IMG/VR virus record: IMGVR_UViG_3300049440_000066
Location: 1 to 55,303 of that record
Direction: 5' to 3' (one strand)
Source: a virus
Lineage: Duplodnaviria; Caudoviricetes
Length of the DNA stretch: 55,303 nt
The notes beneath the pieces are model-generated. The model ran no database searches. It was not told the DNA's origin and saw only the letters and a program-made list of their open reading frames with translations. Position 1 is the stretch's first letter, and every line of letters begins with the position of its first letter. The position numbers were made by a program, and so were the translations under genes. This document shows, in pieces, positions 14,696 through 33,612 of the stretch.

Positions 14696-14714
14696 GCCGA
14701 AGCTAAATTTCTCC

Positions 14715-14775: not shown

Positions 14776-14786
14776 AGGGGCACGAA

Positions 14787-15167: not shown

Positions 15168-16427
15168 GTGGCTACAACTCCCATTGCATTGTTCACAGGT
15201 TCGCTCATCGGTGACGTGCTCGTACAGGCCCGCGAAACCGTACCGGATATGCCTCCGAGTTTGCCTGCTCCAGTAGCGGTGGCTGTGGTTACGACTCCCG
15301 GAACTGGCACGCTCGCGGCTGGCACGTATTTCGTCGAAGTGACGCAATGGAATCAATGGGGCGAAACGCTTGCCTCGACCGAATCTCTCCAACTTACGGT
15401 TCTAGCGACAAACGGCATTCAGATCACGTCGGCCTTGCAGGTGGGCGCGACCAAGATTCGAGCATATCTCACTCAGGTCAATGGCTCATCGGGAAGCGAG
15501 TCTCAGTATGTCGAATCCACCGTATCGCCGTTCACGATCCTTGCGAATCCGGTGCTTGCCGGCAGTCCTCCGGTACGCGGTACGGCATGGCTTCCCGACT
15601 CGGATGGCGGCTTTATCTCGGCAGGAGCGATTTACAGGTGGCTGAACGCAGGGCTTGAAATCATCGCTCGCGGTACAGGGGGATTCCAAGACTATTCGGC
15701 CATCGGCTCGACCATCAATCAGCCGCTTTATCAGATTCCCGCGAACTGGAACTCGATCACCGCAATCTGGTACGACGGTTACTGGATGACGGGCGGCGAT
15801 CCTGGCTACTTCTGGAAACGCAACTCGATCACCAGCCAAGTGCTTGCAAATGCACATATTTCTCACAACGGTTCGCGCACGATTCTCGAAGTGTACCCGC
15901 AACCGGCCAGAACTTCGCTCGTCACGACTCTGGCAGCGCCAATGAGCACTACGGACACGACAGCGACACTTACGAGCGCGGCTTTTGTTCTGCCGTTTGG
16001 ATTCGTTTCTATCGGTTCAGAGATTATGGCCTATGCGACGATAAATGGAAATCAGTTGACGGGCCTCATCCGGGGACTTGGCGGAACAAGTATCATCGCG
16101 CATGTCGCAACCGAAGTAGCGACGGAATGCAACATCGCATGGATGGGCAAACGGCAATCGACGCAGACCTATACGCCCGGACAATCTACAGCAACTCTTC
16201 CGATTGTTTCGGGATGGGATCAGCTTCTCATTTCATATATTGCAGGACGGGCCAAGATCGTCGAGCATGATTTACAGTCGATGAGTGCATTCAATCAGGA
16301 CATGGAAAAGCAGGTAAAAGGTTGGGCGCAAACGGCGGGATCGGTGGTTCGCAGAAGGCAAGTGGGAGGACCGAGCAAGCCTGGAGTGTACTTCCCAGAC
16401 GTTGCGGGAGGTATTCTTATCCAATAA
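15168..16427 (+). CDS. Head-tail adaptor-like protein with inserted beta domains
   Basis: Position; IYRWLNAG, YQIP.NW, LEVYPQP, P...WDQLLISY core, plus an FN3-like GTLAAGTYFV...GETLAS insert. Confidence 0.65.
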   Translation: MATTPIALFTGSLIGDVLVQARETVPDMPPSLPAPVAVAVVTTPGTGTLAAGTYFVEVTQWNQWGETLASTESLQLTVLATNGIQITSALQVGATKIRAYLTQVNGSSGSESQYVESTVSPFTILANPVLAGSPPVRGTAWLPDSDGGFISAGAIYRWLNAGLEIIARGTGGFQDYSAIGSTINQPLYQIPANWNSITAIWYDGYWMTGGDPGYFWKRNSITSQVLANAHISHNGSRTILEVYPQPARTSLVTTLAAPMSTTDTTATLTSAAFVLPFGFVSIGSEIMAYATINGNQLTGLIRGLGGTSIIAHVATEVATECNIAWMGKRQSTQTYTPGQSTATLPIVSGWDQLLISYIAGRAKIVEHDLQSMSAFNQDMEKQVKGWAQTAGSVVRRRQVGGPSKPGVYFPDVAGGILIQ

Positions 16428-16433
16428 TAATTT

Positions 16434-19259
16434 ATGGCCTACCAACCACAACTGTCCGGGCCTTTCTTAAAAGGCCTCGTCGCGTCCAATCAGCCTCTCG
16501 CGCAGCCGAAAGGCTCGTTTCCGCGTGGCTCGAACCTTGTGATGATGGAACGTGGCGCTCTGACTCCGTGCGATGGGTCGGGAATCATCAACTGGTTCAA
16601 TGGAGCGGTGCAAACGAATGTCGGGCGTTTCATGTCCACGTTTCTTTATGAGCCGACCGGAGTGAATCCGTACTATCTGGCGATTAAGCAGGCGCTTGAC
16701 GAGCATCTTGGAGCACCGCATATCAATTCAGCCACAGCATCGACAGGTGGCACGCTCTCTTCAGGAACGACCTATTTCTACAAGATCACGGCACTTGATG
16801 GCGTTGGCGGGGAAACGACAGCTTCCAATGAGGTAAGCGCGACACCCTCCGGCGGCAATTTGTCCGTAACTCTTGTGTGGAATGTCGTGCCGAACGCCTT
16901 TGGCTATAACATTTATCGGGCGACTTCTTCTGGTGCCGAAGTCTTGGTCATAGGAACAAAATTCCCTGCGCTTCAGCCGAATCCTTTGACCGCAACCGTG
17001 ACATTTATCGACGACGGAAGCGGGTCAGTCGCTCCTCTGACCTTTACGATCACTACGGCAACCCGTCTAAGTACCAATACGAACCAGATATTTCTTACTA
17101 CCCAACCGCCTTCTACGATTCTGAATCAATTAGCTACTGTTTCAGGAAATTCCGGCTCTGTTTTCAACAGAACCGGACGTATTATTTCCATCGGAACAAA
17201 TTCGGTAGTGCAACAAGTCAGTTCTATTCCATTCGCTCCCGGTACTGGGACTGGTGGAACATTGACTGTATCGGGGGTAGGACCGCCGATTGCCGACACT
17301 ACGCAGCAAACAGTGCTATTCCAAATGCCAGGTGGAGTAGTTCCAGTCACCTATAGCGATTCCAATATTGTCGCTTTCTATCCAGCTTCCATCGGCACGC
17401 TTGGACAGGTTCCGACTGGTGGATCGGGCGGAAGTGGAACAACTGGTCCTGGCATTAACGGGCAGGGCAGTTCCACGCCTTCTGGTGGTGTTGCGGGCCT
17501 CGTAGGTCCGTTGCCACAATTCAAGCAATTTACGAATCGCGCCGTAATTGCACTTGGCAACGGTTTCTCGATGCAACTGTTTTGGGATTCCACAGGCAGC
17601 CCGGTGAATACCGCCCCTACGGGACCGATTGCTTCCGTGGCTGTGTCGAACGACCAGGTAACTGTGACTGTAGCGGCATCCGTGACACTGAGCACGACCG
17701 ATCCTACAAAGAATGGATTCATGCCCGTCGGAACAAACGTCATCCTTTCGGGGATGAGCGATGCAACCTACGATGGCGTGTTTCCAGTCATTTCGGTAAC
17801 TCCTGGCGCTGGCGGAACATTCGTAGTCCGAAATCCTACCGCATCTGGTGGAGCATCAACGGGCACATTCACTGTCTCGACGACTCCGATCATCAGTACC
17901 TTCACTCCTTCTTTTCCGGCATGGACAGCAAGCACCGCTGTTGCCGCCGGCGACGTGTACGTTCCGAAAACGCAACCCGGAGCGGCAAATATCTACATCG
18001 TAGCAACACAGGGCGGAGTTACTGGATCGGTCGAACCGACTTGGCAGGCAGTTACCGCTACAGGCCAGCATTTTCCTACAGGCAACATCGCCGATGGAAG
18101 CGGTGTGATCTGGCAGGAGGCTGGCTACCTCACCTCACCTCAACCCCCCGGCGCGGGGCATATCGAAATCTACGCAGGATCGCTGTGGGCCTTAAATACA
18201 TCCCCAACGAACACAACGAATGGACTCGATGGCCCCACCGCTCTGAGGATGACGAACACAAATGATCCCTTTGGTTGGAACTCGGTCAATCAGGCGTTTC
18301 TCGACAAGGACGATGGTGCGGAAGGGATGGGCCTCGGCAAATTCACGATTACGGCGCTCGGGATTCCGCCCGAAGGCTCGCTCATCGCCTTCAAATACCG
18401 CGTTCCCTATCAGATCATCGGGGTATTCGGCGCAAACAACTTTGCGATTCAGCCTGTTTCCTCGGACATGGGATGCCTTGCTCCGAGAACGATTCAATTC
18501 GTTCCGGGCTACGGTCTTGTGCGTTACTGCCATCTCGGATACGCGGTATTCAATGGGTTCAAGGATGAAGTTATCAGCGAGCAGATCAGGCCCTACCTGT
18601 TTCCGGTGAACGACTTCGACGCGCAAGACATTACCGTGGCCGATGCGAACTACATTCCGCTGTCCTGGGGAGCGCAGACCGCGAATCCTCCCATGTACGC
18701 GATAGCTGTTCCGATTGGAAACAGTGGCGGGCAGTTGACGCGCATATTCCTGTTCGATTTGATTCTGAAATGCTGGGCCGCGCCTGTCGATCTGCCCTTC
18801 CCGATTGGATGCATGTCTCAGGTTCAGCCGGTCACATCGAATCCTTTGACGATCATCGGTGGATTTAATGATGGAGCCTTGCAACGCTGGCAGGCCGGTG
18901 ACACGAACTGGTATACAGGCGGCGGAGTATCGGCAGCAGCCGTTTTGTGGTCGAAGAGAACTATTACGGTCGCCTCACAGGATTCCAGCCAGCGCGTTTG
19001 GGCAAGAAGGCTGATTATCCGAGGCACGAATGCAGGAGCAAGCGGAAAGATTACGGTGCAGCCTCGCGTTTCCGGTGTGTCGCAGGCTGCGGTTCAGTAT
19101 AGAATCCCTGCGAGCGGAGACTTCGACCTATTCGCCGACGTGGGACTTACCGGATTGCGATTCGACGCGGACATTAGCGGCACCGTGCATGTCGAGATTG
19201 ACGGAGAGACTTGGAACATAGAACCAAGACCTTCGGGCGTTCCAGTTGGAGCTATTTAG
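16434..19259 (+). CDS. Tail nozzle/stabilisation protein (P22 gp10/T7 gp12-like) with FN3-like and other inserts
   Basis: F.KGL start, beta-propeller-like SLIAFK, MGCLAPRTI, ISEQIRP; YFYKITA...GYNIYR insert. Confidence 0.7.
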   Translation: MAYQPQLSGPFLKGLVASNQPLAQPKGSFPRGSNLVMMERGALTPCDGSGIINWFNGAVQTNVGRFMSTFLYEPTGVNPYYLAIKQALDEHLGAPHINSATASTGGTLSSGTTYFYKITALDGVGGETTASNEVSATPSGGNLSVTLVWNVVPNAFGYNIYRATSSGAEVLVIGTKFPALQPNPLTATVTFIDDGSGSVAPLTFTITTATRLSTNTNQIFLTTQPPSTILNQLATVSGNSGSVFNRTGRIISIGTNSVVQQVSSIPFAPGTGTGGTLTVSGVGPPIADTTQQTVLFQMPGGVVPVTYSDSNIVAFYPASIGTLGQVPTGGSGGSGTTGPGINGQGSSTPSGGVAGLVGPLPQFKQFTNRAVIALGNGFSMQLFWDSTGSPVNTAPTGPIASVAVSNDQVTVTVAASVTLSTTDPTKNGFMPVGTNVILSGMSDATYDGVFPVISVTPGAGGTFVVRNPTASGGASTGTFTVSTTPIISTFTPSFPAWTASTAVAAGDVYVPKTQPGAANIYIVATQGGVTGSVEPTWQAVTATGQHFPTGNIADGSGVIWQEAGYLTSPQPPGAGHIEIYAGSLWALNTSPTNTTNGLDGPTALRMTNTNDPFGWNSVNQAFLDKDDGAEGMGLGKFTITALGIPPEGSLIAFKYRVPYQIIGVFGANNFAIQPVSSDMGCLAPRTIQFVPGYGLVRYCHLGYAVFNGFKDEVISEQIRPYLFPVNDFDAQDITVADANYIPLSWGAQTANPPMYAIAVPIGNSGGQLTRIFLFDLILKCWAAPVDLPFPIGCMSQVQPVTSNPLTIIGGFNDGALQRWQAGDTNWYTGGGVSAAAVLWSKRTITVASQDSSQRVWARRLIIRGTNAGASGKITVQPRVSGVSQAAVQYRIPASGDFDLFADVGLTGLRFDADISGTVHVEIDGETWNIEPRPSGVPVGAI

Positions 19260-19260
19260 G

Positions 19261-19656: not shown

Positions 19657-20096
19657 TGCCACAGATTATTCCAGCAATCGTAGGGTTTTTGGCTGCAAAC
19701 GCTCCCGCCATCGGAGCAGCTTCGGCGATTGCCGGGGCGGGAACATCTATTGGAGAGGCCATCGCTAATAGGGGCGGACCAGCTACGCCAACGACTCCAA
19801 CGGCTCCAACGGCTCCAACGCCTACACCACCGAACTTAAATCAACTTTTGCAGGAACGGCAATTAGTTGGAAGTCAGGCTTCCAATCTGGAAAGCGCCAC
19901 ATCAGGAGCGGCTGGACCGGATTTTCTCAAGTTGTTTGCGCCATTCCTTGCAGGCATATCGGGTCAACCAGGGGCAAGCGGAGCAGGGACATACGCAGCA
20001 AATCAGGCTTGGGCGCCGGCGAACAGCCAGCCAACAAATGCGGCAGTACAGGGGCAACCAGTAAATTTGAGCGATTTCATCAGTAGCAACACATAG
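19656..20096 (+). CDS. Internal virion/ejection protein (putative)
   Basis: A/G-rich hydrophobic N-terminus and Pro-Thr linker. Confidence 0.6.
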   Translation: MPQIIPAIVGFLAANAPAIGAASAIAGAGTSIGEAIANRGGPATPTTPTAPTAPTPTPPNLNQLLQERQLVGSQASNLESATSGAAGPDFLKLFAPFLAGISGQPGASGAGTYAANQAWAPANSQPTNAAVQGQPVNLSDFISSNT

Positions 20097-20104
20097 GCGG
20101 TCAA

Positions 20105-21720: not shown

Positions 21721-23817
21721 ATGGCTCAAGACCAATACGCGGAATATGAATCCGTCCGGCGCAATCCTAAAACTGGACAGATGATCGGTCTGAAAAATGG
21801 ACAGTGGACGCCAATCGTGTCCCAAACGGCTGCTACTCCTGTGGCAGCACAATTCCCTACCGGAGCGATGCAGGCGAAGCCAGGCGGACCAATTCTGGAT
21901 GCTTTTCAGCAGCAGCATCCGATTCGTGCCATTCCTGCCACAATTCTTCAGTCATTCGGTATTGATCCATCCCAGGTTGAGGGGGCTAAGAGTTACATAG
22001 ATGCTCTCAAGGGTGCTGGGAGCGACGTAGCGAATGCAACTGGCGAACAGATGTTCGAGTCGATGATTCACGCTGGCCCTCTTGCTCCAGTGGACATGCT
22101 CCGCAAGGGAATCGAAGGAGTAGCCAATGGAATCGAGGATGGTAGCAAGCAGGCGTATGCCTCTTATCGCAATGGAGACAGGTTCGGGCTGACGCAAGGG
22201 CTAACCAAGGTCGCTTCATCGCTCGGGCAGCTTGCTCTTTTGAAGGAATCCAAGCCAGCAGTTGAAAAGTCTGTGGAATTAACAGGAAAAGGCGTACGTG
22301 CTGGGTTCCGAGCGCCACTTGGTATTGGTCCATCGGCTGAACGACTGGCTGCTGAAGATAGAGCCACAGAAGTTGCCGCAAACGAGCACGCCAATCGTGA
22401 GGCTGCACGCCAAATCGCAGAGAAAAATCAGGAAATAACGACTAAAAACATTCAATCTGTGTCCAATGCGAAACAAACCAGCGAAGAGGCTGTCAGAAAA
22501 ATAGAGGAGCAGAATGCTAAAGCACAAGCCGATTACGAACAGAACAAGCGAAGGATAGACGCCCAATACAAGCGCGACACGCAGAAATTCGAGCAGGCCA
22601 GATCGGGACAATCGCTCACTTCGCAGGGTCGTGGAACTCGTCCCTCGGTGACAAATGAGGCTGCGGGCGCGACAAGAGCGCGCCTGAACGCATGGTCGGA
22701 TAAGGTGGTAGACATCGCAGGGAAAACAAAAGCAAATCTAAAGGAATCCTTTAATAAACGCTATAACGCTTTCCGGGAAGCTATTTCCGACAAGGACGCA
22801 AACGGAAATTCTGTCCCTGCGAAAGTAAACTGGAGTCCTATTCAAGGGGCCGTCAAAAACGCAGAGGACAACATCCTGCAAGGTTCACCGGAAAGTATCA
22901 CTCTCTTCCGAAACATTATGAAAGAGGGTCCACAACTTGATGAGGCGAGCGTATTCCGTTCATCTCAAGGGAACGAGGCGGCGCAAAATCTAAAGGAACT
23001 GCTTCGTTCAAAGCAGATCGGTCCCAAGGGATTCGACAGAATGATGGCGGAACTTCACGCGCAAGGAGTTCCAACTGAAAATATTGAAAGTGCCCCGTCA
23101 AATACAATCACGAAAGGTCTTCAAATTCCCCACGAAGATGCTTGGGGCTACGCGCAAGAACTTAACGCCAAGTTGCATGGAGCGCAACTGCCGAGTGACG
23201 TGTACCGCGCCTTAACGAGCGTAAAAGAGGCCATTGATGAAGGACTCCAAGAAACTGCGGACCTAAAAAATGCTGGCGGGATATGGAAAACAATCCAAAA
23301 CGATTATAGCGAGTACGCGCAACGCTTTCTCGACAAGGACTCTCCGGCGTACAAACTGATGAATGCCACGAATCCAGAAGATCGGCTCTCAATTATCACT
23401 GGAAAGGAAGGGCAAAACCTTATTGACGCACTGCACAAGTATCGAGGTTTTGGGGGAGATACCGAGATTGCTGGAAAAATCAGGGCATTGCGTGCGGCTG
23501 GCTCCAAGATCGTTGACCAACTTACTGAGCCAGTGCGGGGAGAGTATCCAGGAGCGCCAACACCGAAGTCTCTTCCAACCGAGTCGTCATATCCTGCACT
23601 AACGCAACCGGAAACTCTCGATCCTTCCAAGTTGAAGTCAACGGAGCCATTCAGTCCCGAAGAGTGGCGCAAAGCACGTCTGCGGAAATACCAAGAGACG
23701 CTTGCAATGAGACAGCCACCGTCACAATGGCAGTTTTTGCAACTACCATTCTTTCGTGCGATTAGTGCGCTGTATTCAAATCCGGCGTTTGTGAAGATGG
23801 TTCTTGGGATTAAGTGA
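21721..23817 (+). CDS. Large ejection/internal virion protein (putative)
   Basis: 698 aa, helical; NPKTGQMIGLKNGQW N-terminal motif. Confidence 0.65.
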   Translation: MAQDQYAEYESVRRNPKTGQMIGLKNGQWTPIVSQTAATPVAAQFPTGAMQAKPGGPILDAFQQQHPIRAIPATILQSFGIDPSQVEGAKSYIDALKGAGSDVANATGEQMFESMIHAGPLAPVDMLRKGIEGVANGIEDGSKQAYASYRNGDRFGLTQGLTKVASSLGQLALLKESKPAVEKSVELTGKGVRAGFRAPLGIGPSAERLAAEDRATEVAANEHANREAARQIAEKNQEITTKNIQSVSNAKQTSEEAVRKIEEQNAKAQADYEQNKRRIDAQYKRDTQKFEQARSGQSLTSQGRGTRPSVTNEAAGATRARLNAWSDKVVDIAGKTKANLKESFNKRYNAFREAISDKDANGNSVPAKVNWSPIQGAVKNAEDNILQGSPESITLFRNIMKEGPQLDEASVFRSSQGNEAAQNLKELLRSKQIGPKGFDRMMAELHAQGVPTENIESAPSNTITKGLQIPHEDAWGYAQELNAKLHGAQLPSDVYRALTSVKEAIDEGLQETADLKNAGGIWKTIQNDYSEYAQRFLDKDSPAYKLMNATNPEDRLSIITGKEGQNLIDALHKYRGFGGDTEIAGKIRALRAAGSKIVDQLTEPVRGEYPGAPTPKSLPTESSYPALTQPETLDPSKLKSTEPFSPEEWRKARLRKYQETLAMRQPPSQWQFLQLPFFRAISALYSNPAFVKMVLGIK

Positions 23818-23940
23818 GGAAAATAAATCCCAAACAGAAACGAAGGCGTATGCGGAATAGCAACAAGCCCAAAGAAGGGCATAGGCCACGAAGGGCGCAA
23901 GTAATATTAGGAGAAGGTACGCAATCAGAAGATCAAGCAT
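23776..23940 (-). CDS. 54-aa membrane protein (moron, possible superinfection exclusion)
   Basis: MLDLLIAYLLLILLAPFVAYALLWACC...; own promoter immediately upstream; not in the ORF track. Confidence 0.6.
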   Translation of the reverse strand: MLDLLIAYLLLILLAPFVAYALLWACCYSAYAFVSVWDLFSSLNPKNHLHKRRI

Positions 23941-23946
23941 GAGGGA

Positions 23947-23976
23947 ACGCTACCACAAGTTAGGCATAGGTGTCAA
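23947..23976 (-). promoter_or_regulatory. Sigma70-like promoter TTGACA-18-TAGCGT with operator in the spacer
   Basis: 21/22 identical to 46931-46952. Confidence 0.7.
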
Positions 23977-23980
23977 CTAG

Positions 23981-24262
23981 ATGGCGACTGAAAAAGAACG
24001 CGCCATGATGTCAAAGACGCGCGGCCAAGTAGCGGCTGGGATGCGTCCCGGCGAAGAAAAGAGAGAGTTCATCGCCCGACAGGGAAGAGAAGAAGCCCGA
24101 GGCAGAGAGGACATGCAATCGCTCGAACAGGAAGCCTATCGGCAACGCAATGTCAACGCCGTGGAAGGCTCGATGAGGAAGGGTGGCAAGGTCCGAAAGA
24201 CTGGTTTATACCGATTACATCGCGGCGAGCGCGTGGTTCCGAAGAGAACGAGAAGGCGGTGA
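23981..24262 (+). CDS. Small basic protein (KGGKVRKTGLYRLHRGERVVP motif), ends KRTRRR
   Basis: 93 aa ORF. Confidence 0.7.
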   Translation: MATEKERAMMSKTRGQVAAGMRPGEEKREFIARQGREEARGREDMQSLEQEAYRQRNVNAVEGSMRKGGKVRKTGLYRLHRGERVVPKRTRRR

Positions 24263-24265
24263 GGG

Positions 24266-24427
24266 ATGCCGGGAACTGAACATTTCAAGAGTCCAGAATC
24301 TTACAGAAAATACAGGGCATTCACACATATCCATCATATTCCTACACATGCCCGCGAAGTGGTGGTCGGCGGGCGCAAGCATAAGGTAATTCACAAACGC
24401 GAGACGAGGAAAGGAAGGCGAAGATAA
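24266..24427 (+). CDS. 53-aa His/Arg-rich protein, ends RKGRRR
   Basis: MPGTEHFKSPESYRKY...; TAATG-coupled to the next gene; not in the ORF track. Confidence 0.65.
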   Translation: MPGTEHFKSPESYRKYRAFTHIHHIPTHAREVVVGGRKHKVIHKRETRKGRRR

Positions 24428-24639
24428 TGGCCCGAAAAAAGAAGGACAAGAAGTTCATCCAGAAAGCCACCGAGCGCATGGAAGAAAAAGGAACTGTGGG
24501 TAGTTTCGGCAAGGCCACACCCTCGAAGATTGAACACGCGAAGGAGCATGGCGGTCTTGAGAAGAAACGCGCCGTGTTCGCCCAGAATATGAAGCGTATC
24601 GCAGCGAAGCGTCACCATCGGAAGTCGAGTCGGCGATGA
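24427..24639 (+). CDS. Small basic phage protein (KKFIQKA...KKRAVFAQNMK), ends RKSSRR
   Basis: 70 aa, coupled. Confidence 0.75.
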   Translation: MARKKKDKKFIQKATERMEEKGTVGSFGKATPSKIEHAKEHGGLEKKRAVFAQNMKRIAAKRHHRKSSRR

Positions 24640-24713
24640 TCGCAAATAGCAAAAAGACGAGCGGTAGTGAGCAGGGCTACGGTCGGAAGCCGCGTCGATC
24701 TAAGAGGGCATGA
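24636..24713 (+). CDS. 25-aa basic microprotein MIANSKKTSGSEQGYGRKPRRSKRA
   Basis: ATGA overlaps at both ends. Confidence 0.45.
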   Translation: MIANSKKTSGSEQGYGRKPRRSKRA

Positions 24714-25897
24714 TGAAGAAACTGTTTCTAGTTGCGGCTTTGTTGTTCTTCCCCGCGTTGTGTCGGGCGCAGAACACAACTATCGTCGCCACGATCACCG
24801 ATCCGACGGGACGGTTCTATACGTTTCTCACCGGAAGCGCCTCGATCCAGTGTCCCGGCAATGAGCAACCGACCTTCAATGGTTCTCCTCTCGCTCGCAC
24901 TATCCCGATCACTGGCGGGGACGGAAATGGACACTTTACGCAAGTCCTTTGGGATACGAGTAAAATTCTTCCTGCTGGATGCACTTGGCGTTGGGCGATA
25001 ACGTGGCAAGACGGGATTACTAATTTCACAACCGGAAATATTGGAGGCGTGACAGGCACCGGGCCAGTCGATCTTTCTTCTGCCATCTCCGCATTTTCCG
25101 TCCCTCTTCCGAATACGGCAGGATTCGTTCTCGGCGTATCGGCTACAGCGCCTATTGTGTCCTCGATGGGAGTTGCGCCAGTAATTTCCTGTCCGACATG
25201 CACGACAAGTGCCGCTGCACTGACACTAAATCAGCTTATTCTCGGTGCTGGCTTGCAGGCCGAAGCCGCACTCGGAAGTCTCGGGACGACTACCACGGTC
25301 CTGCATGGGAACGCCGGCGGAGCGCCTTCGTTTAGTGCCGTAAATCTAGCCACTGATGTTACTGGATCATTGCCTGTCGGCGATCTGACCGGACAAATAC
25401 CAATCTCGCAGGTAGGGAGCGCCGGTCTAAGCGGAACGGCTCCCATTTCCATTGCTGCTACAGGGGCTATAAGTTGTTCGACTTGCTTAACCACAACATC
25501 AACGTCCGTTCCATGGGTTGCCATCTGTGACCAGTTTAATGCCGGTGGCAGTCAACTTGGTTGCTACGGCGGGTTTGCAAGCGGATCGCAGTCGATATGG
25601 GCAGAGACTATACTTCCAACAGCCCATACGTTGCTTCGTTTTACTATCTATATGACTGCTGGAGTAACAAGTTGTACGACATATCCAGTCATATCGTTTC
25701 GGGACGAAACATCAAATACGACTCTCGCGTCGCTAACGCTGCCAAATAGTGTTGGACCTGATTTTCTAGACTCTGGGATTCTTTCCGTCGCACTAACTTC
25801 TGGCGACACATTTTCCGTAAAAACAACGACTGCTGGAGACACGTGTGTGAATACGGTGGGTTATCAAAACTGGGAAGCAACGGCAATATACCAATGA
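24710..25897 (+). CDS. Tail-fibre-like protein with Sec-type signal peptide
   Basis: MKKLFLVAALLFFPALCRA|Q; repeated (S/G)ATAPI...ISCxTC; fibre-like GTTTTVLHGNAGGAPSF...L..DVTG.LP. Confidence 0.7.
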   Translation: MMKKLFLVAALLFFPALCRAQNTTIVATITDPTGRFYTFLTGSASIQCPGNEQPTFNGSPLARTIPITGGDGNGHFTQVLWDTSKILPAGCTWRWAITWQDGITNFTTGNIGGVTGTGPVDLSSAISAFSVPLPNTAGFVLGVSATAPIVSSMGVAPVISCPTCTTSAAALTLNQLILGAGLQAEAALGSLGTTTTVLHGNAGGAPSFSAVNLATDVTGSLPVGDLTGQIPISQVGSAGLSGTAPISIAATGAISCSTCLTTTSTSVPWVAICDQFNAGGSQLGCYGGFASGSQSIWAETILPTAHTLLRFTIYMTAGVTSCTTYPVISFRDETSNTTLASLTLPNSVGPDFLDSGILSVALTSGDTFSVKTTTAGDTCVNTVGYQNWEATAIYQ

Positions 25898-25923
25898 TAA
25901 GGAGATATTATCGAGACAATACA

Positions 25924-28671
25924 ATGAGAAAGCTAATAGTACTTTCGATGATCTTAGCCATGTGTTCTGTGGCAAAAGCGCAACAAAAGCAGGCACTCAG
26001 CGCGGCTTCGGCCAGTTGTACGGCCACGTCATGCCTTGGGGTCACAGTCGATCAGACCCAAGGTGGCGCTACATTCACGATCACAGCCAACGCCTCGGGC
26101 AACACGATAGTTTTTGAAGCCTCCGGGGATGGCGGCACAACCAGAGTTGCGCTCAACGTGACTCCGAGCAATAGCACCACGGCGGTCACTTCGACTACGG
26201 GAACAGGAACCTGGCAGGCCAACACAGCCGGCTATACCAATGTCTACATGCGAATGTCGAACCTTGTCGGCGGAACCACGACTGTTTCGATCATTCAATC
26301 GACCGCCTCTGCCAGAGCTGGGGGAGGCGGTGGAGGCGGCAGTGGCTCCATCGTCTCCTGCACCGCTCCAGCCGCGAATGGAGCCATCCTCTTCCAGAAT
26401 GGAACAACGGACACAGCAACGTGCGATCCAAACCTCGTATGGAATCCGACAGGTGGCGGTCTTGGCGCTCTGGAAGTAACCGCCGATGGCGTCAACGCAT
26501 GGTATGCAATGGCTCCGATAGTGCAGGGGTCAACGATTACCGGGAATCAGCAGATGGCCGGCCTATTCGCTGAAGGCAATACAACGATCAATTCGCCGAA
26601 TACGAACGCGGACTCTGTAGCGGGCATTCTTGGAGATGCGTTGGGAGCGGGGAGCGGCACCTTTAATGAATTAGTTGGATCGTCTTTTAATGCCGGTTAT
26701 AGCGGTACAGGCACAGTCACTCTAATGAACGATTACCGGGCGCAGGGAGGTACAAATACCGGCGGCGGCACGGTTACTCATCTTAGCGGCTATTACTGCA
26801 ACGATATTCATGGCATAGCCTCGACGCTGAATACATGCTTCTATGCTGAAAATCAGGGTGCAGGCGCGAATGACTATGCGCTGTATCTGGCCGGAGGGAA
26901 GGCGCACATCGCCGCTATAGGTGCTTCAACTCCAGTTTGCACAGATAGTGGCAGCAACTTAGGGTCTTGCAATACATCTCTCCCGGCAGGTCAATTCTTG
27001 TTGGAGACGAATTGCGGGAGCCTAACAAACTGTTTCCAAGTTCACGCAGATGGTCAGCTAGTCACCGATCCAGTATTCACGGCTGGAAGTCACACCGTCA
27101 CTTCAGCTACAGCAGCGTTCTGTGGTGGAAGTGGACCAGCCTGCACAGCCGCACAGATCGCACGCGGTCACACGACGGATGTAGGGACAATCGCTGTGGG
27201 GCTTGATAATTGCCTGTCAGTAAACGAAATGGCCTGCACTTATAACTGCGCGCAAACGACGATTGCCACGGTAGCGAGCGCGACCAGTATTACTCTTACG
27301 GGAACATGTACTAGAAATTCTTCAGCCACAGCCAAATCGAATACCTTCTACTGGGGCCAGGATGACGGCGCTCAAATACAAGCGGCCAACCTTGCTTTGG
27401 ATACGGCTGCGAAGACAGCGCCAGCGGGCTTGAAATTACCATGCGGAATTATGCTGACCAGCCTTAATCCATTCATCGACCAATTCATAAACCGGCCCTT
27501 TAACATCGGTATTGATGGATGTGCGCCCGGAACTGTAAGCACGATCATTCCCCTACCTAAGATGGATTGTAATTTAGGCGTGAATGAGGGATGCCTGATC
27601 TACAGCAACTTTTCGCAGAAAGCTCTCGGGATTATTGGCTTGTCGGACAAGTTCAGGGACATTCTTTTCCTCGGCGCAGGCGTTCCCGACAAAGATTCGA
27701 CAGCTACTTATTCTGCGAGCACCAGCGGTATCTATATTCAGTTCCTTGACGAACTTGATGATGTGATGGTCGAAGGTTGGGACTGGAACCGAGCATCAGG
27801 AACTCCGGTCTACGGCATCAAGTGCATCGGCTGCACGCTGTTTAACTCTGGCTCTTATGCCGGAGGTAATTACGGCTGCTACTTAATATCGAACTCGCTC
27901 GTTGCTGCAAACATGCATGGTGGCCTTTGCGGTGGTTCGTCGTTTAATTCTCTTACCATCGGTACAGGTGCCTCAAATGGGGTATCGACATACGGTGTCT
28001 ACATCAATGGGACGAATGCCGGAGTGTTTGGAACAAAGACGACCTATGGTGTTTATAATGACGGCGGTTTGTGGAACGACTATGGCAGCGTCGTCGGTAC
28101 GGGTATTTGGCAGGACTTGGGGACGAGCGCGTTGTATGGAACCTGGGACAATGGTCTATCAAACTTCAACATCAACTTGGCGGGCGGCACGATCAAACTC
28201 TCCAACGCCCACATGGATGCCAATGCAAACATAACAGGCGGAACGCTCATAGATCAGTGCGGAAATACGAGCTTCCCTACGGGTATCACTTTCGTAGCTG
28301 GGACCATGTTAAGCGATTGCGTCGTGGGCGGGGATACGCAACTAGCGTTAGCGACGGCTCAGACAGCAAAAACAGTTTTCACTGTCGGGGCGGCAACCGT
28401 ACTTTTTCGAGTCCACATTTCGGTAGAGTGTACGACGACTTCTGCAAGCGCCACGGTTACACCTGCCGTGCTTTACACGGATACATCGAACACGGCGCAG
28501 ACGGTCACGGGCACGGCAGCGACCTGCACGGCTCTTGGAGCTGCTAGCAATACGAGCCAAGATGTAACATTTAGGGCCAAGAATGCGACTACTATCCAGT
28601 ATCAGACGACAATCGTCAACACCCCAACATATGATGTGAGTGTGACTGTCGAACAGTTGGGTTTACGCTAA
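25924..28671 (+). CDS. Tailspike/beta-helix-like protein with Sec-type signal peptide
   Basis: MRKLIVLSMILAMCSVAKA|Q; DG...GQDDGAQIQAA...LP.G pectate-lyase-like head; very T/G/N/C-rich. Confidence 0.7.
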   Translation: MRKLIVLSMILAMCSVAKAQQKQALSAASASCTATSCLGVTVDQTQGGATFTITANASGNTIVFEASGDGGTTRVALNVTPSNSTTAVTSTTGTGTWQANTAGYTNVYMRMSNLVGGTTTVSIIQSTASARAGGGGGGGSGSIVSCTAPAANGAILFQNGTTDTATCDPNLVWNPTGGGLGALEVTADGVNAWYAMAPIVQGSTITGNQQMAGLFAEGNTTINSPNTNADSVAGILGDALGAGSGTFNELVGSSFNAGYSGTGTVTLMNDYRAQGGTNTGGGTVTHLSGYYCNDIHGIASTLNTCFYAENQGAGANDYALYLAGGKAHIAAIGASTPVCTDSGSNLGSCNTSLPAGQFLLETNCGSLTNCFQVHADGQLVTDPVFTAGSHTVTSATAAFCGGSGPACTAAQIARGHTTDVGTIAVGLDNCLSVNEMACTYNCAQTTIATVASATSITLTGTCTRNSSATAKSNTFYWGQDDGAQIQAANLALDTAAKTAPAGLKLPCGIMLTSLNPFIDQFINRPFNIGIDGCAPGTVSTIIPLPKMDCNLGVNEGCLIYSNFSQKALGIIGLSDKFRDILFLGAGVPDKDSTATYSASTSGIYIQFLDELDDVMVEGWDWNRASGTPVYGIKCIGCTLFNSGSYAGGNYGCYLISNSLVAANMHGGLCGGSSFNSLTIGTGASNGVSTYGVYINGTNAGVFGTKTTYGVYNDGGLWNDYGSVVGTGIWQDLGTSALYGTWDNGLSNFNINLAGGTIKLSNAHMDANANITGGTLIDQCGNTSFPTGITFVAGTMLSDCVVGGDTQLALATAQTAKTVFTVGAATVLFRVHISVECTTTSASATVTPAVLYTDTSNTAQTVTGTAATCTALGAASNTSQDVTFRAKNATTIQYQTTIVNTPTYDVSVTVEQLGLR

Positions 28672-28672
28672 A

Positions 28673-29257
28673 ATGAAAAAGAATCTACAACTCGCCGCTT
28701 TTCTGATGGTCGGAGTTTTGCTCGGGAACCTCTTGGGCGGGTTCGTTCACGCGCAGACCTATCTGATTGCAACCGAAGTCCCGCGTGGCACGATTCTACT
28801 AATGGCGGCTGCATGTCCAACCGGATATGTGGAAGTCACAGCTCTTAACGGAGCGATGCCTCTTGGGACACTTGCCGCGAACGGAGATGTCGGCACAACA
28901 GGCGGCTCAAACACGATCACGCCCACTGTGGCCAGCCTGACGGCGGCGGCGCAAACTGTTTCATGGCCTGTCGGAGTTCCGACATTTGCAGGTTCGACAT
29001 TGGCGGCAACGACGTTCGCTATTGCTACCGGCAGCGGTTCTTTCAAAGGGACAAGCAGCGGAGGATTCTCTACCGTGGGCGGCGCGGCTCCGGGTTCGGC
29101 GGGAGCTACCACATCGAAAAGTCCAGGAACGCCTGCCGGGACTGTGGCATGGCCTGCCGGAGTGCCTACAAATTCCACGTCCTCAGTTACAGGTACGCTA
29201 AACAGTTTCGATAGCCGCTCGGCATTCGTGAGGGTGATATTTTGTCAAAAGTCCTGA
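28673..29257 (+). CDS. Tail-collar-like fibre protein with signal peptide
   Basis: ...FVHA|Q; VPRGTI...ACPTGY...GTTGG...VIFCQK collar pattern. Confidence 0.7.
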   Translation: MKKNLQLAAFLMVGVLLGNLLGGFVHAQTYLIATEVPRGTILLMAAACPTGYVEVTALNGAMPLGTLAANGDVGTTGGSNTITPTVASLTAAAQTVSWPVGVPTFAGSTLAATTFAIATGSGSFKGTSSGGFSTVGGAAPGSAGATTSKSPGTPAGTVAWPAGVPTNSTSSVTGTLNSFDSRSAFVRVIFCQKS

Positions 29258-29535
29258 TTGCGGCAATATTGCTCCTGATGCAATCTGCTCCTCCGATTGC
29301 GGTGTCGGTTTCTCCCGACAATGCGGAAGTGGCAAAAGGCCAGCAGCAACTCTATACAGCGACGGTGGCGAACGATCCGACAAACAGCGGAGTGACATGG
29401 ACACTAAAGGATGAAAATGGGAATCCATGCTCTCCCGGCTGCGGCACGCTGACGATGGTGACTCCGTTCACGGCAGTCTATACCGCGCCGAACGCGCCTG
29501 ATCCACCAACGGATTTGAAGGTGATCGTGATATGA
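29242..29535 (+). CDS. Ig-like domain protein with hydrophobic N-terminus
   Basis: VSVSP....V..GQ.Q.YTATV....NSGVTW...CGTL...YTAP. Confidence 0.7.
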   Translation: MSKVLIAAILLLMQSAPPIAVSVSPDNAEVAKGQQQLYTATVANDPTNSGVTWTLKDENGNPCSPGCGTLTMVTPFTAVYTAPNAPDPPTDLKVIVI

Positions 29536-29909
29536 AATCTTCCATACTCGAACGGTGGGAAGAAATCGGCAGGCAGATCAATGCCTTGCAAAAAGAGCGT
29601 GTCGAACTGCGAAGGATTATCCTCGACAAGATCGGGGCTTTCAGCGGGTCGAGACTCACAAGGCGGGAACGGGAAGTTCTGTCATTTCTTACGAGCGATC
29701 CCGGAATCGCCAACAAGGAAATCGCCGATAAACTGAACTGCGCCGAGAGAACGGTCAAGTTTCATCTAAGTTCGATGTTCGAGAAGTACAATGTCACAAA
29801 CAGGCGCGACTTGGTGCTGATGGCAACCGAAGAAATGGAGAGTAAAGCCGATGAAACGATTCCTGTTATGCGTGCCCCTGTTCCTGATGTGCGCCGCATC
29901 GCCAATTAG
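29532..29909 (+). CDS. LuxR/GerE-type HTH regulator with N-terminal coiled coil
   Basis: LTRREREVL...NKEIADKLNCAERTVKFHLSSMFEK. Confidence 0.88.
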   Translation: MKSSILERWEEIGRQINALQKERVELRRIILDKIGAFSGSRLTRREREVLSFLTSDPGIANKEIADKLNCAERTVKFHLSSMFEKYNVTNRRDLVLMATEEMESKADETIPVMRAPVPDVRRIAN

Positions 29910-30423
29910 AGCGCAGCACAAAGTCACTCTGACATGGACAAACTCGCCCGACACGAATAACACGTTCGTCTATCGGCTAACCGGACCTTGCCCGACGCCG
30001 CTGGCCGGATTTACGAAGCTCACCGCTTCCCCGGTTACGACCGCGACTTATGCCGATTCGGCTGTGAACGCCGGAACGACGTACGCTTACTATGCGACTG
30101 CATTCCTGAACAACCTCGAAAGCGTACCGAGTAATTGTGTTTCTGCGACCGTGCCAGTAGCGCCTCCGACTGGACTGGCAATCAGCAGCGTAGCGATTCT
30201 CCGACAAGGCACTCAGGACCGCTTGCAAGCCGACTGGACCGACACGAATGGTGTGGCTACAGCCTTCACGATCTTCGGCGGGCAGGGACAAGTTCTAAAG
30301 CAAGGTTCGCAAACCACTGGGAATGGGATATATTCTTTCGCAATCTTGGTGCCTCCGCAGAGTGGCGTGTTTTCGGTCTGCGATAGCAAGGGCTGCGTAA
30401 CTCAAGCGTTTACGGGCATCTGA
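29851..30423 (+). CDS. Secreted fibronectin type III-like protein
   Basis: ...PIRA|Q signal; VTLTW...VYR...Y.D..V.AGTTYAYYATA....ES.PSN. Confidence 0.75.
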   Translation: MKRFLLCVPLFLMCAASPIRAQHKVTLTWTNSPDTNNTFVYRLTGPCPTPLAGFTKLTASPVTTATYADSAVNAGTTYAYYATAFLNNLESVPSNCVSATVPVAPPTGLAISSVAILRQGTQDRLQADWTDTNGVATAFTIFGGQGQVLKQGSQTTGNGIYSFAILVPPQSGVFSVCDSKGCVTQAFTGI

Positions 30424-30959
30424 TGTTCGGACTTCATTGGCGGAAACGAATGGGCGAACATGACGACAAGCACCACGGCAAACCAGCGGAATCGCACGAC
30501 GAGCAGATCATTGCCCGTCTCGACTTCATCGAAGCACAGCTTGACGACATCATTGCTTTACTTCGGCCCAAGGCAGCAAGTATTCAGTTCCAGGTCAAGT
30601 TCAAAGGTCAAATCTTAGGAGGAAATCAAATGGTAGCACTCGATCCAACCAATAATGCGTACGATCTCGTTGTGACGGGCGAACTCGATGCGGCTGGAAA
30701 TCCGGTAGCTCTGCCGGCCATCGCATTTGGCTTCGCAGTCAGTGATCCGAACCTCGGCATAATGACCGTCAACGCCGATGGCAGGAGCGGGACTTTTGTG
30801 GCAAATAAGGCACAGACGGCCAGTTCCGCAGGTTCTATCGTGATTACGGACCCAGTTGTCGGTATCACGGCAGAATCGCATTTCACCTTCACCGTGCCGC
30901 CGCCTCCCGTGGCCGCCACGATCCAATTTAGTGAGAGCGCACCTCACCCTTCCGTCTAG
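30423..30959 (+). CDS. Ig-like protein with internal in-frame start at 30630
   Basis: LDAAGNPV, VSDP beta-rich domain; internal SD AGGAGG at 30617-30622. Confidence 0.6.
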   Translation: MFGLHWRKRMGEHDDKHHGKPAESHDEQIIARLDFIEAQLDDIIALLRPKAASIQFQVKFKGQILGGNQMVALDPTNNAYDLVVTGELDAAGNPVALPAIAFGFAVSDPNLGIMTVNADGRSGTFVANKAQTASSAGSIVITDPVVGITAESHFTFTVPPPPVAATIQFSESAPHPSV

Positions 30960-30967
30960 GAGGCTCG

Positions 30968-31237
30968 GTGCAAGACACTTGGTGGAATCACAACACCGAT
31001 AAGCTGATCCTGCTTCTCTTGGCTGCCGGCCTATGGTCGAGCACCATGTGGGCAGCGATGCACATTTTCCACCATGACCTCGACAACATGGCGGCGCTGG
31101 CTTTCATTTCTTTTATGACAGGATCGGTGAGCACGGTTCTCGGTGCATTGATCCTGATTCTAACGGGCCGAACATTCAGGGCTGACAATCCGACGCCTGC
31201 GCCATCTGTTCCGAGTCCAGAACAGCCCAAACCGTGA
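30968..31237 (+). CDS. Two-TM membrane protein (holin-like)
   Basis: Two hydrophobic helices; SD AGGAGG. Confidence 0.6.
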   Translation: MQDTWWNHNTDKLILLLLAAGLWSSTMWAAMHIFHHDLDNMAALAFISFMTGSVSTVLGALILILTGRTFRADNPTPAPSVPSPEQPKP

Positions 31238-31476
31238 ACGAAACCTCGATCATCAGCATGGTTCTGGTTATCCTTGCCTGGGCCGGTTCCGGGCTTATCA
31301 CTTGGGGCGTAATGAAGGGCAAGATGGAGGACTTCGAGCGCCGACTTGATGAAATCGAGGAAGACAGCAAGGGGCTACTTCCGAGGATCGAATACGATAA
31401 TCGGCACGCCGACCTAGTACGCCTGCTGACGCGCATCGAAGACAAGCTCGACCGGGAATTGAGGCATGAGAACTGA
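31234..31476 (+). CDS. TM plus coiled-coil lysis-cassette protein
   Basis: N-terminal TM, RIEDKLD coiled coil. Confidence 0.65.
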   Translation: MNETSIISMVLVILAWAGSGLITWGVMKGKMEDFERRLDEIEEDSKGLLPRIEYDNRHADLVRLLTRIEDKLDRELRHEN

Positions 31477-31495
31477 TGTGGGTTTATAATAAGCC

Positions 31496-31975
31496 ATGCA
31501 CGCAAAGCTATCCAACCCAGAATTGAGATTATGCGCTAGGAATGTTTGCCGTAAACCTTTTCTATCTGATTGGTCTGACAAACAGTACTGTATCCGCTTA
31601 TGTAAAATAAAAGAGGCCAATGAGCGGCACCGTCAGAGATTCCCAGAACGAGCACTTCAAAGGTCTAGGGATTTTGAAGCTCGCCATCCACACAGAGGAA
31701 AAGCCTACGCTAGAAAGTTCAAATATGGAATCAGCCAAGAGAAATTCGAGGCGATGATCCTAGAGCAAAAGAATTTCTGTAAACTGTGCGGGTTGCCTTT
31801 TGGTGAAGGCATTGTCCCTCGCGTAGATCACAATCATAAGACGGGGAAAGTGCGCGGACTTCTGCATGACAAATGCAATACTGGGATCGGCTTCTTTTCA
31901 GATGACCCATCTCTATGTCGGAAAGCTGCGAAGTACTTAGAGGATTCTGATGTCTTGGATATACGTTCAAAATAG
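31496..31975 (+). CDS. Endonuclease VII-like (HNH) homing endonuclease
   Basis: KYGIS...Q...CKLC...[25 protein letters not shown]. Confidence 0.9.
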
Positions 31976-32336
31976 CGGTCAACTGATTTCACCAGCGGGT
32001 GGCCTTATGGCAACTGGTTATAGTGGCGCGGGCACAGGAAAAAACGCGCCTACCGAGGAGAACGTGCAAAATGTCGGACCAATACCCGAAGGATGGTATG
32101 ACATCGAAGCGCCGGAAAATTCACCTACGCACGGGCCATTTGCCTTACGCCTTTTGCCGGACGCCGGAAACGCCATGTATGGACGCTCTGAGTTCCTTAT
32201 CCACGGTGACAGTATCGAGCGCCCCGGCCAAGCGAGCGAAGGTTGTATTATTTTGCCTCGATTTGCCCGAGAAGCCATCTGGAACGGCGGGGATCACCGA
32301 TTGCAGGTAGTCAAGGAACTGCCGACCAAGACATGA
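31950..32336 (+). CDS. Tlde1/DUF2778-family peptidoglycan-acting protein (probable endolysin)
   Basis: [37 protein letters not shown]. Confidence 0.85.
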
Positions 32337-32518
32337 AAGACCTAGACCCACGCATCATGTTCGGCTTCTGCTTACTCCTCGCGGTTGCCATTCTTGCCGG
32401 GATTATCGCGCTCGGCCATGTCGAACAGACCACCAGCCACGGCCTCGACATCGTGCTCGGCTCACTTGCTACGCTGGCAGGCGGGTTTTCCAACTGGGCT
32501 TTCACAAAGAAAGACTAG
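32333..32518 (+). CDS. Two-TM holin-like protein
   Basis: 61 aa with two hydrophobic segments, after the lysin. Confidence 0.6.
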   Translation: MKDLDPRIMFGFCLLLAVAILAGIIALGHVEQTTSHGLDIVLGSLATLAGGFSNWAFTKKD

Positions 32519-32521
32519 CCA

Positions 32522-32555
32522 GCGTGGACCGGCCTTCCCCTAAGTCGATCCACGC
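32522..32555. terminator. Hairpin between convergent transcription units
   Basis: GCGTGGACCGGC / GTCGATCCACGC. Confidence 0.55.
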
Positions 32556-32576
32556 CAGCCGGGACAACGGCCAACT

Positions 32577-32747
32577 CTACAGTTTCCAATCTTCGAGATG
32601 TCGGAAAAGTGTCATTACAGCAGATAGGAACACCAGCAAAAGAAGTACTGATTGATGCGTTGTGATCATTTTGCTGTCTGGATCAGTGATTAAACCTATG
32701 CCAGCAAAGAAACAGCAATATATAAAGAATCGAGCAAGATGCTTCAT
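32577..32747 (-). CDS. Small two-TM protein
   Basis: SD GGGAGG; hydrophobic. Confidence 0.6.
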   Translation of the reverse strand: MKHLARFFIYCCFFAGIGLITDPDSKMITTHQSVLLLLVFLSAVMTLFRHLEDWKL

Positions 32748-32967
32748 ATTCCTCCCTAATTGAATCGAAGCAGTCGGCATCTCAGCCGAGACTTTTTCCT
32801 TTGGCCTTGGATACTCGCCTACAGTACTGACTCGTCGGCTAGCACCCGCGTCGCAACTCTCAATACTGCCCGCTCTGCGCGGTTCTGCCTCGAACTTGGA
32901 CTGCTAAACTCATGCCGCGCTTCCCGCAGACTCGGCGCGGCGCGAGGCCCAGTCTCGTTCTGCGGAA

Positions 32968-33153
32968 CTAGGATGTCGGCGGTAATCCGGCCAAGAGTTG
33001 CTTAATCAGCGCTGTGTTTGCAGTTGTTTGCGCGTCGGCAGCCGCTAGAATCTGATCGTCGGTCAATCCGTTCTGCGCCTTGATTCCATGAATGATGTTC
33101 ACGATGGCGTTGATTCCAGCGATTGCTTCTCCGATTATGCTGATCGGGTCCAT
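32968..33153 (-). CDS. Small amphipathic protein paired with the lipoprotein
   Basis: SD AGGAG; abuts 33154. Confidence 0.65.
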   Translation of the reverse strand: MDPISIIGEAIAGINAIVNIIHGIKAQNGLTDDQILAAADAQTTANTALIKQLLAGLPPTS

Positions 33154-33612
33154 TTAGTTTGCTCCTAGTGCGGTAATCGCAGAATTGACAGCACCGACAA
33201 TCGAGTTCGCTATCTGTGTGACATTGGCCTGAGACTTCGGATTGCTCACTTTCAGGGCCGCAAGTGTAGCCGGATCGCCGATCCCCGAGGCAAGAGACTT
33301 CGCACAGGCCGAGAATCCGCCTACTTTGGTTTGCGTGTGCGCTACCCGGATGCAGCCAATGTACTGCGCGTTTACGACGTTCACCAGGTTCGACCATCCG
33401 AGAATGTTGCGTTCTTCGGTGGCGTTCAGAAGTCCTTGCACCCGCCAAGCATCGACCAAAGCATCGCCGTTGTTCACCGATAGAGCCACATCATCGGCTA
33501 GACGAGATGCAATGCTGTAAGGCGTCGATGGCGCGGTCCCACCTGCCGGATTCTGCGCCGCGCATCCGGTCATCGAAACAGCCAGAACCAAAGCCAGTAC
33601 GATTCGCTTCAT
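33154..33612 (-). CDS. Lipoprotein
   Basis: MKRIVLALVLAVSMTG|C lipobox. Confidence 0.8.
   Translation of the reverse strand: MKRIVLALVLAVSMTGCAAQNPAGGTAPSTPYSIASRLADDVALSVNNGDALVDAWRVQGLLNATEERNILGWSNLVNVVNAQYIGCIRVAHTQTKVGGFSACAKSLASGIGDPATLAALKVSNPKSQANVTQIANSIVGAVNSAITALGAN

Follow-up and report, generated by a model that had tools for sequence, protein, structure and literature searches.

In the textbook view, every component of a tailed phage is assembled in the cytoplasm. The leaderless tailspikes and fibres of podoviruses (P22 gp9, Sf6, HK620, Dettilon gp208, CBA120 TSP2-4 and T7 gp17) fold there, and P22 tailspikes attach spontaneously to finished heads, as a late step, in classical in vitro complementation. 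Exposure of an N-terminal glutamine by secretion has been described in Bacteroidetes, where the cut by signal peptidase I exposes Gln that is cyclised to pyroglutamate in the periplasm, the so-called Q-rule (Bochtler 2018, PMC5837995); the accessible part of that paper mentions neither Acidobacteria nor phages. In Porphyromonas gingivalis phages, five genes of unassigned function carry Q-rule leaders and, in the available portion of the report, are interpreted as genes that alter the outer membrane of the host (PMC10367356). This is the nearest account found in the literature, where our searches returned no published description of general secretory (Sec) leaders on the fibres or spikes of tailed phages. 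Here we analyse the virus record IMGVR_UViG_3300049440_000066, which is a single contig of 55,303 bases taken as a whole (the window), and in particular five plus-strand genes, gpA to gpE, at 24710-30423. Since secretion signals are borne by the fibre-like and tailspike-like proteins of this phage, the folding of its host-recognition apparatus probably takes place beyond the cytoplasm, separately from the remainder of the particle. The routing of ordinary fibres and spikes through export would be the new aspect.

Leaders were called with our own rule-based scorer and by reading of the open reading frames (ORFs), a type I leader being taken as a positive n-region, an uncharged hydrophobic core of 7-15 residues and small residues at -3 and -1. 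In gpA (24710..25897, 395 aa, with the ribosome-binding site AAGAGGG ahead of its ATG) the leader covers residues 1-20 (24710-24769) and reads MMKKLFLVAALLFFPALCRA, with the predicted cut at CRA before QNTT. The leader of gpB (25924..28671, 915 aa) covers residues 1-19 (25924-25980) and reads MRKLIVLSMILAMCSVAKA, cut at AKA before QQKQ. An alternative gpB start is offered by an upstream ATG at 25894, overlapping the gpA stop, and 25924 is favoured because relatives begin at the MRK/MKK position. The 27-residue leader of gpC (28673..29257, 194 aa; leader 28673-28753) ends in LLGGFVHA before QTYL, and the 21-residue leader of gpE (29851..30423, 190 aa; leader 29851-29913) reads MKRFLLCVPLFLMCAASPIRA, cut at IRA before QHKV. 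All four have positive n-regions (MMKK, MRK, MKKNLQ and MKR, respectively), hydrophobic cores of 13-19 residues and small residues at -3 and -1. By the above rule gpA, gpB and gpE carry type I leaders, with 13-residue cores and A-x-A sites before Q, and the core of gpC is longer (19 residues). Gln stands at +1 in four out of four; no lipobox Cys is found at +1 and no twin-arginine beside the core. Twin-arginine translocation (Tat) was considered and set aside, as the only RR belongs to the upstream extension of gpB, itself improbable, and lies at a distance from the hydrophobic core.

The sequence-only reading had described signal-like N-termini in five proteins and cleavage before Gln in four of them. 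The four Gln sites are found as described in the ORFs. In the case of gpD (29242..29535, 97 aa, TTG start with GAGGG 7 nucleotides upstream), the N-terminus holds a hydrophobic run of 10 residues, with no acceptable cleavage site, and fails the type I rule. Its leader is doubtful and is not counted as confirmed because the run is short and no usable cut site follows. When the scorer was applied to a greedy non-overlapping ORF set across the whole window, only gpA, gpB, gpE and one probably spurious 54-aa minus-strand ORF scored above 5, while gpC scored 4.1; as judged from these calls, leaders in the window are confined to the gpA-gpE module. On these N-termini, Sec export of the leader-bearing proteins is highly probable.

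The relatives point in the same direction. In the alignment of the gpA family the leader drifts while the +1 Gln is invariant (9/9); behind it come 110 conserved residues and then divergent C-termini. The leaders thus keep their type and not their sequence. N-domains of 60-88% identity joined to C-termini that differ widely form a modular pattern typical of receptor-binding proteins. The wider family figures refer to 120 listed matches of gpA and to 150 listed of 710 cluster representatives of gpB at E<=0.001. By a crude rule 66/120 gpA matches and 127/150 gpB representatives bear a leader, and many of the 23 gpB representatives that do not are visibly incomplete. Gln is the commonest +1 residue among these listed matches, in 39/66 (gpA) and 71/127 (gpB), with Gln making up 3.2% of residues overall; the counts were obtained without any scorer bonus for Gln. 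A further 20 leaders of the gpB family were scored with R at +1, and by eye the site had been set two residues early in RA before Q.

The domain that follows the leader in gpB, N-domain B (25981-26316, gpB residues 20-131), gives way to a poly-Gly linker and then to a part modelled with low confidence that ends near residue 349. Of the 150 listed gpB representatives, 100 contain N-domain B, and the start of the domain is present in 94 of these. It lies directly behind a leader of 15-45 residues in 93/94, with [AGS]Q at the boundary in 81/94, and no internal N-domain B was encountered among the 150. The domain is encoded at 10 IMG/VR loci, to which handles such as L001 are given here. Eight of the 10 loci lie in 7 distinct phage records of 50-56 kb, the numbers differing because two loci come from near-identical contigs, and all eight come with adaptor and nozzle-like genes at 63-83% identity to those of the window. 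In these 7 phages the leader-bearing genes come after the ejection proteins and most leaders are cut before Gln. Five leader-bearing proteins per module were counted in L001 and in L002, and 3-4 in each of L004, L006, L007, L009 and L010; two L007 leaders missed by the scorer were read by eye, as were some cut sites where the scorer was off by two. Counterparts of gpE in L001, L002, L004 and L006 carry leaders cut before Gln. As a separate observation, small proteins with lipoprotein-like leaders (CFG before C and LTG before C, respectively) are encoded at L009:12013-12492 and L006:14679-15266, in or just after the fibre modules.

The cysteines were examined next to the leaders. The mature forms of gpA to gpE contain, in order, 10, 28, 2, 2 and 4 Cys, all even numbers. 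Elsewhere in the particle genes there are 5 in the portal, 1 in the probable capsid protein, 1 in the adaptor, 5 in the nozzle-like protein and none in three ejection-like proteins. Even mature counts were found in 62/66 leader-bearing gpA matches and 110/127 leader-bearing gpB matches among those listed; for leaderless matches the values are 38/54 in the gpA family (12 of them having zero Cys) and 15/23 in the gpB family. Cysteines also appear and disappear in pairs in the gpB alignment: for C442-C462, both residues were present in 18 sequences, neither in 32 and a single one in 0; for C507-C533 the numbers are 27, 13 and 0, and for C32-C37 they are 43, 5 and 3, though shared ancestry may inflate these paired figures. 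Ser and Thr together make up 18-28% of gpA-gpE vs 8-24% of 10 other head, tail and ejection-type proteins. Taken together, the canonical leaders, the invariant +1 Gln in the gpA family, the even Cys counts and the paired gain and loss of Cys give good support to the export and disulfide bonding that the sequence alone had suggested, and export with periplasmic folding of the appendages is very likely.

The identity of the exported proteins rests on fold, gene position and relatives. The model of gpB, a monomer built from an 88-row alignment, is confident for residues 20-130 and 350-915, with a predicted local distance difference test score (pLDDT) >90 over most of 350-915. This part (26971-28668) is predicted as a right-handed beta-helix with a C-terminal beta-sandwich. 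Foldseek returned 30 PDB matches to gpB at E<=0.001, and every entry displayed at this level, with like chains of one entry collapsed, is a phage tailspike or capsule depolymerase. Residues 350-915 aligned by VIA-align with Dettilon gp208 (Z 24.5, root-mean-square deviation (rmsd) 9.7, 367 aligned) and CBA120 TSP2 (Z 24.2, rmsd 2.8, 281 aligned), and the top row was taken by the secreted alginate epimerase AlgE4 (2pyh; Z 25.4, rmsd 2.9, 293 aligned). With Z of 19-25 against tailspikes and epimerases, the beta-helix proposed for this locus is confirmed for the gpB model, which is of tailspike type. Two further likenesses are leads only: ESM Atlas look-alikes of N-domain B fall in XepA-family clusters with a score of 0.87, below counting level, and some segment of gpB was aligned by Foldseek with the prophage protein YomS (6i5o) over 110 columns at 23% identity.

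For gpA the case is made through its relatives. Behind the leader lie a transthyretin-like N-domain (residues ~21-130), fibre-type repeats with CxxC and a variable C-terminus, and the model is confident only at residues 20-130, a transthyretin-like sandwich. The closest fold is the N-terminus of the neck fibre of cyanophage A-1(L) (8keg_a; Z 8.4, rmsd 2.8, 93 aligned), and matches were also obtained to 9e7m_Ta (Z 7.3, rmsd 2.8, 89 aligned) and 7kjk_A3 (Z 7.1, rmsd 3.0, 89 aligned); N-terminal segments of Ur-lambda tail tip, XM1 neck and Bxb1 tail tip chains are on the same list. The central repeats (TTTVLHGN and LATDVTG, with CxxC) are common to 169 metagenomic proteins, and in the repeat-sharing relatives P0015, P0016, P0071 and P0076 the fibre chaperone Peptidase_S74 or K1-lyase_C was found. 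These fibre-specific domains are absent from gpA itself in the Pfam scan, and gpA, gpB, gpC and gpE gave no Pfam or PHROGs match. The fibre character of gpA is thus supported by the company that its repeats keep.

The smaller proteins are less informative. The protein gpC is rich in Gly, Thr and Ser, with 201 relatives of which most start with leaders; a tail collar had been proposed for it, and this finds no support in searches of Pfam (E<=0.1), PHROG (E<=0.01) or PDB sequences (E<=1). Of the immunoglobulin (Ig) and FN3 motifs proposed for the locus, both were recovered weakly: the Ig-like Big_2 match of gpD reaches 17.6 bits (E 0.004), below the cut-off of 22.8, and the FN3-like match of gpE has E 0.017 vs PDB 3mpc. 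A frameshift fusion of gpC and gpD was considered and rejected, as no canonical slippery heptamer was seen by eye at 29230-29257 and gpD has its own ribosome-binding site. Between gpD and gpE, and not itself an exported part, lies a leaderless LuxR/GerE-type helix-turn-helix regulator (29532..29909, plus strand, Pfam E 2.6e-19), whose gene overlaps the start of gpE by 59 nucleotides and has homologues in the same place in L001, L002 and L006. It is possibly a late or lysis-timing regulator.

From these results a route can be proposed in which gpA would be a fibre, gpB a beta-helix tailspike or depolymerase, and gpC and gpE (perhaps with gpD) small partners, all of them host-recognition appendages. 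They would be synthesised late with Sec-type leaders and pass unfolded across the inner membrane, where the cut by signal peptidase I would leave an N-terminal Gln able to cyclise to pyroglutamate. In the periplasm the appendages would fold, oligomerise and form disulfides, while capsid, portal, adaptor, nozzle-like and ejection proteins would be built in the cytoplasm. The two sets would come together only at the opening of the inner membrane by the holin, or else in the lysate, and the conserved N-terminal domains would dock on the tail. Receptor-binding identity is supported by the fold of gpB, by the position of the genes and by the finding that no leaderless fibre candidate was seen among the window ORFs looked at. 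The docking finds support, by analogy only, in the cultured Cellulophaga phage phi18:3 (KC821620), whose gp085-087 bear leaders cut before Gln (GYS, VSA, LNA) and are annotated 'structural protein, experimental MS/MS', with PHROG families named tail or virion structural protein. Nine other phi18:3 proteins so annotated by mass spectrometry (MS) were translated and show no leader. On this analogy we rate the whole route, with docking on the virion at or after lysis, at slightly better than even.

Several findings weigh against the route. Export itself, pyroglutamate, disulfides and above all docking are what we infer, and gpA-gpE of this phage and its close relatives are known from genes alone. 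Our rule for calling leaders is a coarse one and sets the cut at the wrong residue in some cases. Cysteine density was tried as an indicator of export. It is higher in leader-bearing than in leaderless proteins of the gpA family (1.53 vs 0.98 per 100 residues) but not of the gpB family (2.29 vs 2.46), where some full-length leaderless relatives are equally Cys-rich. The likeness of the gpA N-domain to virion-docking domains is only suggestive because Z of 7-8 lies within the chance range for common beta-sandwiches, and the annotation of phi18:3 is silent on whether the leader is present in the virion form. Two further points lead to an explanation of another kind, in which the leader-bearing proteins, depolymerase included, are exported envelope enzymes or binders that never join the particle. 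They would remodel or destroy surface polysaccharide of the host to block superinfection, to stop progeny from sticking to debris or to help release, and adsorption would fall to the adaptor or nozzle-like proteins with their FN3-like inserts. Leaders do imply an extracytoplasmic site of action, and the fold of gpB is also that of exported bacterial enzymes outside any virion (AlgE4 and Pantoea stewartii WceF). The P22-like phage L011 (portal Pfam E 6e-53), in which the adaptor, nozzle-like protein and portal of the window have no detectable counterpart, also has N-domain B at 46% identity; its leader-bearing 741-aa protein with 27 Cys (L011:9869-12094) is flanked by the portal gene and a 491-aa ORF, outside a tail module. 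The gene there resembles an inserted cassette more than a tail gene, and an exported cassette that moves between phages would account for this arrangement no less well than a domain specific for docking on tails. The only paper found on phage Q-rule leader genes, in its accessible part, also reads them as host outer-membrane modifiers (PMC10367356). Set against these points, such a phage would have no separate receptor-binding protein among the ORFs looked at; a strictly N-terminal domain on swapped C-termini, at the identity given above, is the signature of a docking module; hallmarks of tail fibres occur in gpA relatives; and the leader-bearing proteins of phi18:3 are annotated as structural and detected by MS. 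We therefore regard action on the envelope alone as unlikely, though its probability is appreciable.

Two explanations with less in their favour concern the fate of the leaders and the time of expression. If the hydrophobic N-termini stayed uncleaved, they might serve as membrane anchors or assembly handles that hold the fibres until lysis, or only part of the pool might be exported. The 19-residue core of gpC, the long N-terminal hydrophobic segments of many gpC relatives and the stretch in gpD that lacks a cleavage site fit this proposal; the short 13-residue cores of gpA, gpB and gpE, each followed by a classic A-x-A site before Q, do not, and the Gln kept at the boundary throughout the gpA relatives and as [AGS]Q in most listed N-domain B proteins can hardly be accounted for without cleavage. 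Uncleaved anchors are thus improbable. The genes might also be morons for lysogenic conversion, expressed from a prophage and shown on the host surface as are lambda Lom and Bor or T5 Llp, since leaders are present here and leader-bearing moron genes often adjoin tail-fibre genes. The genes are, in contrast, contiguous with the late operon, and promoter-like sites (15 vs 11.5 expected) and terminator-like sites (18 vs 20.7 expected) are not enriched at 14000-33500, so that the module reads as part of that operon. No integrase turned up in the ORFs scanned, the alignment patterns used for the gpA family and N-domain B gave no confirmed relative in 185,579 species' genomes, and the proteins are large and modular, unlike small outer-membrane proteins. 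A moron origin is accordingly very improbable, and export of appendages that later dock on the tail is the reading carried forward here.

The remainder of the window is in keeping with this assignment. As judged by its gene content (portal, adaptor, terminase, nozzle-like and ejection-like genes), the window is a complete 55-kb podovirus, that is, a short-tailed phage, from an uncultured source. The portal gene (8531-10264) has SU10- and P22-type Pfam matches, and the large subunit of the terminase is 25% identical to its counterpart in Roseobacter phage CRP-7, a distant match only. The adaptor and nozzle-like genes (15168..19259, plus strand) are leaderless context genes, presumed to form the docking platform and to be built in the cytoplasm; the adaptor (15168-16427) has a weak SU10_adaptor match, and the nozzle-like protein (16434-19259, 941 aa), lying 3' of it, is named by position alone. 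Proteins encoded up to 23817 are Cys-free, rich in Gly and Gln and coiled-coil-looking, and are called ejection-like. Two small, extremely basic ORFs rich in Lys, Arg and Glu (23981-24262 and 24427-24639; 93 and 70 aa) lie between the last ejection-like gene and gpA. The gpA-gpE genes come directly after the ejection-like genes on the same strand and ahead of the lysis cassette. This region (30968..32336, plus strand) contains two holin-like small membrane proteins (30968-31237 and 31234-31476), an endonuclease VII gene and, adjoining the latter, a candidate endolysin (31950-32336) with a Tlde1/L,D-transpeptidase-like domain (Pfam E 1.1e-14). As the candidate endolysin is leaderless, lysis needs a hole-forming holin. 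By eye, the lysis enzymes differ among related phages, being lysozyme-like in L001 and M15-like in L002. Among the early genes a PAPS-reductase-domain gene was noted on the minus strand (40369-41238, Pfam E 3.3e-22), and L001 has, by eye, adenylylsulfate-kinase-like and sulfotransferase-like genes, suggesting, tentatively, that phages of this group carry out sulfur or sulfation chemistry.

Little in the window speaks of the host. Comparison of the portal, gpB, gpA and the nozzle-like protein with 50,697 phage records by tblastn gave zero matches, and hence neither a cultured close relative nor a host lead; no tRNA genes were found in the window, which leaves no clue from that side either. A Shine-Dalgarno core precedes 23/48 putative starts vs 12.5% at random positions, and this frequency makes a Bacteroidota host unlikely. 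The host is thus probably not a member of the phylum for which the Q-rule was described, and the habit of Gln at +1 is also met in a phage of Acidobacteriota, Tunturi_1 (see below). A cluster of sugar- and methyl-modifying genes extends over 51160-55303 and 315-3426 and contains a methyltransferase, an RGP-like glycosyltransferase (GT), a B12-binding radical SAM protein, a GT2-like protein and other GT-like ORFs. The cluster is likely to run on over the contig ends, and its target may be the host envelope or DNA. Glycosylation of the exported proteins by these phage enzymes had been suggested and is unsupported: all the sugar and methyl enzymes looked at are leaderless, no multi-pass oligosaccharyltransferase was seen among the ORFs examined (no dedicated transmembrane scan was made), and nothing ties the enzymes to the exported proteins.

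If the proposal is true, an extracytoplasmic maturation step is missing from the textbook assembly pathway. The wider proposition, to which we give an even chance, is that assembly in two compartments is the routine among tailed phages that infect two or more bacterial phyla. Head and tail core would form in the cytoplasm, whereas all host-recognition appendages would form in the periplasm, cut by signal peptidase, pyroglutamate-capped and disulfide-bonded, and the halves would be joined only just after the holin opens the inner membrane. Exported fibres and spikes could make use of disulfides, as the leader-bearing relatives appear to do. They would depend on host Sec and signal peptidase and perhaps on Dsb and glutaminyl cyclase, which would be new host factors and possible routes to resistance, and the last assembly step would have to be coupled to lysis. 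Biotechnological expression would require export or oxidising strains, and annotation pipelines in which a leader counts against membership of the virion would give such proteins the wrong label.

The likeness to known systems is of several kinds. With the leaderless podovirus spikes, gpB shares the right-handed beta-helix (Z 19-24.5), the order of conserved N-terminal module, linker and variable enzymatic or binding body, and the gene position after the ejection genes; the difference here lies in the Sec leaders cut before Gln and the even Cys. Among exported bacterial proteins, WceF (PDB 6tgf) has the tailspike fold of gpB (Z 17.8, rmsd 14.1, 354 aligned) and is a trimer with a cleaved export signal, exported by Tat (PMC7949094). 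Both WceF and Azotobacter AlgE4 are exported beta-helix polysaccharide enzymes, as is proposed for gpB, yet they are encoded by bacterial genes in polysaccharide clusters, with no phage context and no N-terminal module shared with neighbours, and WceF takes the Tat and not the Sec route. The Q-rule genes of P. gingivalis phages share the leader with Gln at +1 and, in the accessible part of their description, are not presented as fibres or spikes.

The closest parallels are with two cultured podoviruses. Like the window, phi18:3 encodes three neighbouring proteins with leaders cut before Gln; it differs in that no sequence relationship to the window was found, the three proteins have 0, 1 and 3 Cys and the host belongs to Bacteroidota. 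Our literature searches found no published discussion of these leaders. In the Tunturiibacter phage Tunturi_1 (PP887698), which has an acidobacterial host, gp12, gp13, gp14, gp16 and gp17 bear Sec-type leaders with Gln at +1 in 4/5. Neither signal peptide nor tail fiber, tailspike or mass spectrometry occurs as a term in the main text of the Tunturi_1 paper (PMC11924767). Though unrelated in sequence to the portal, gpA and gpB of the window, Tunturi_1 resembles it in having a run of large Cys-rich proteins (20, 10, 21 and 32 Cys), one of them annotated as a tail spike. Cultured phages with the same feature, Tunturi 1/2 and Cellulophaga phi18:3, make the question directly testable.

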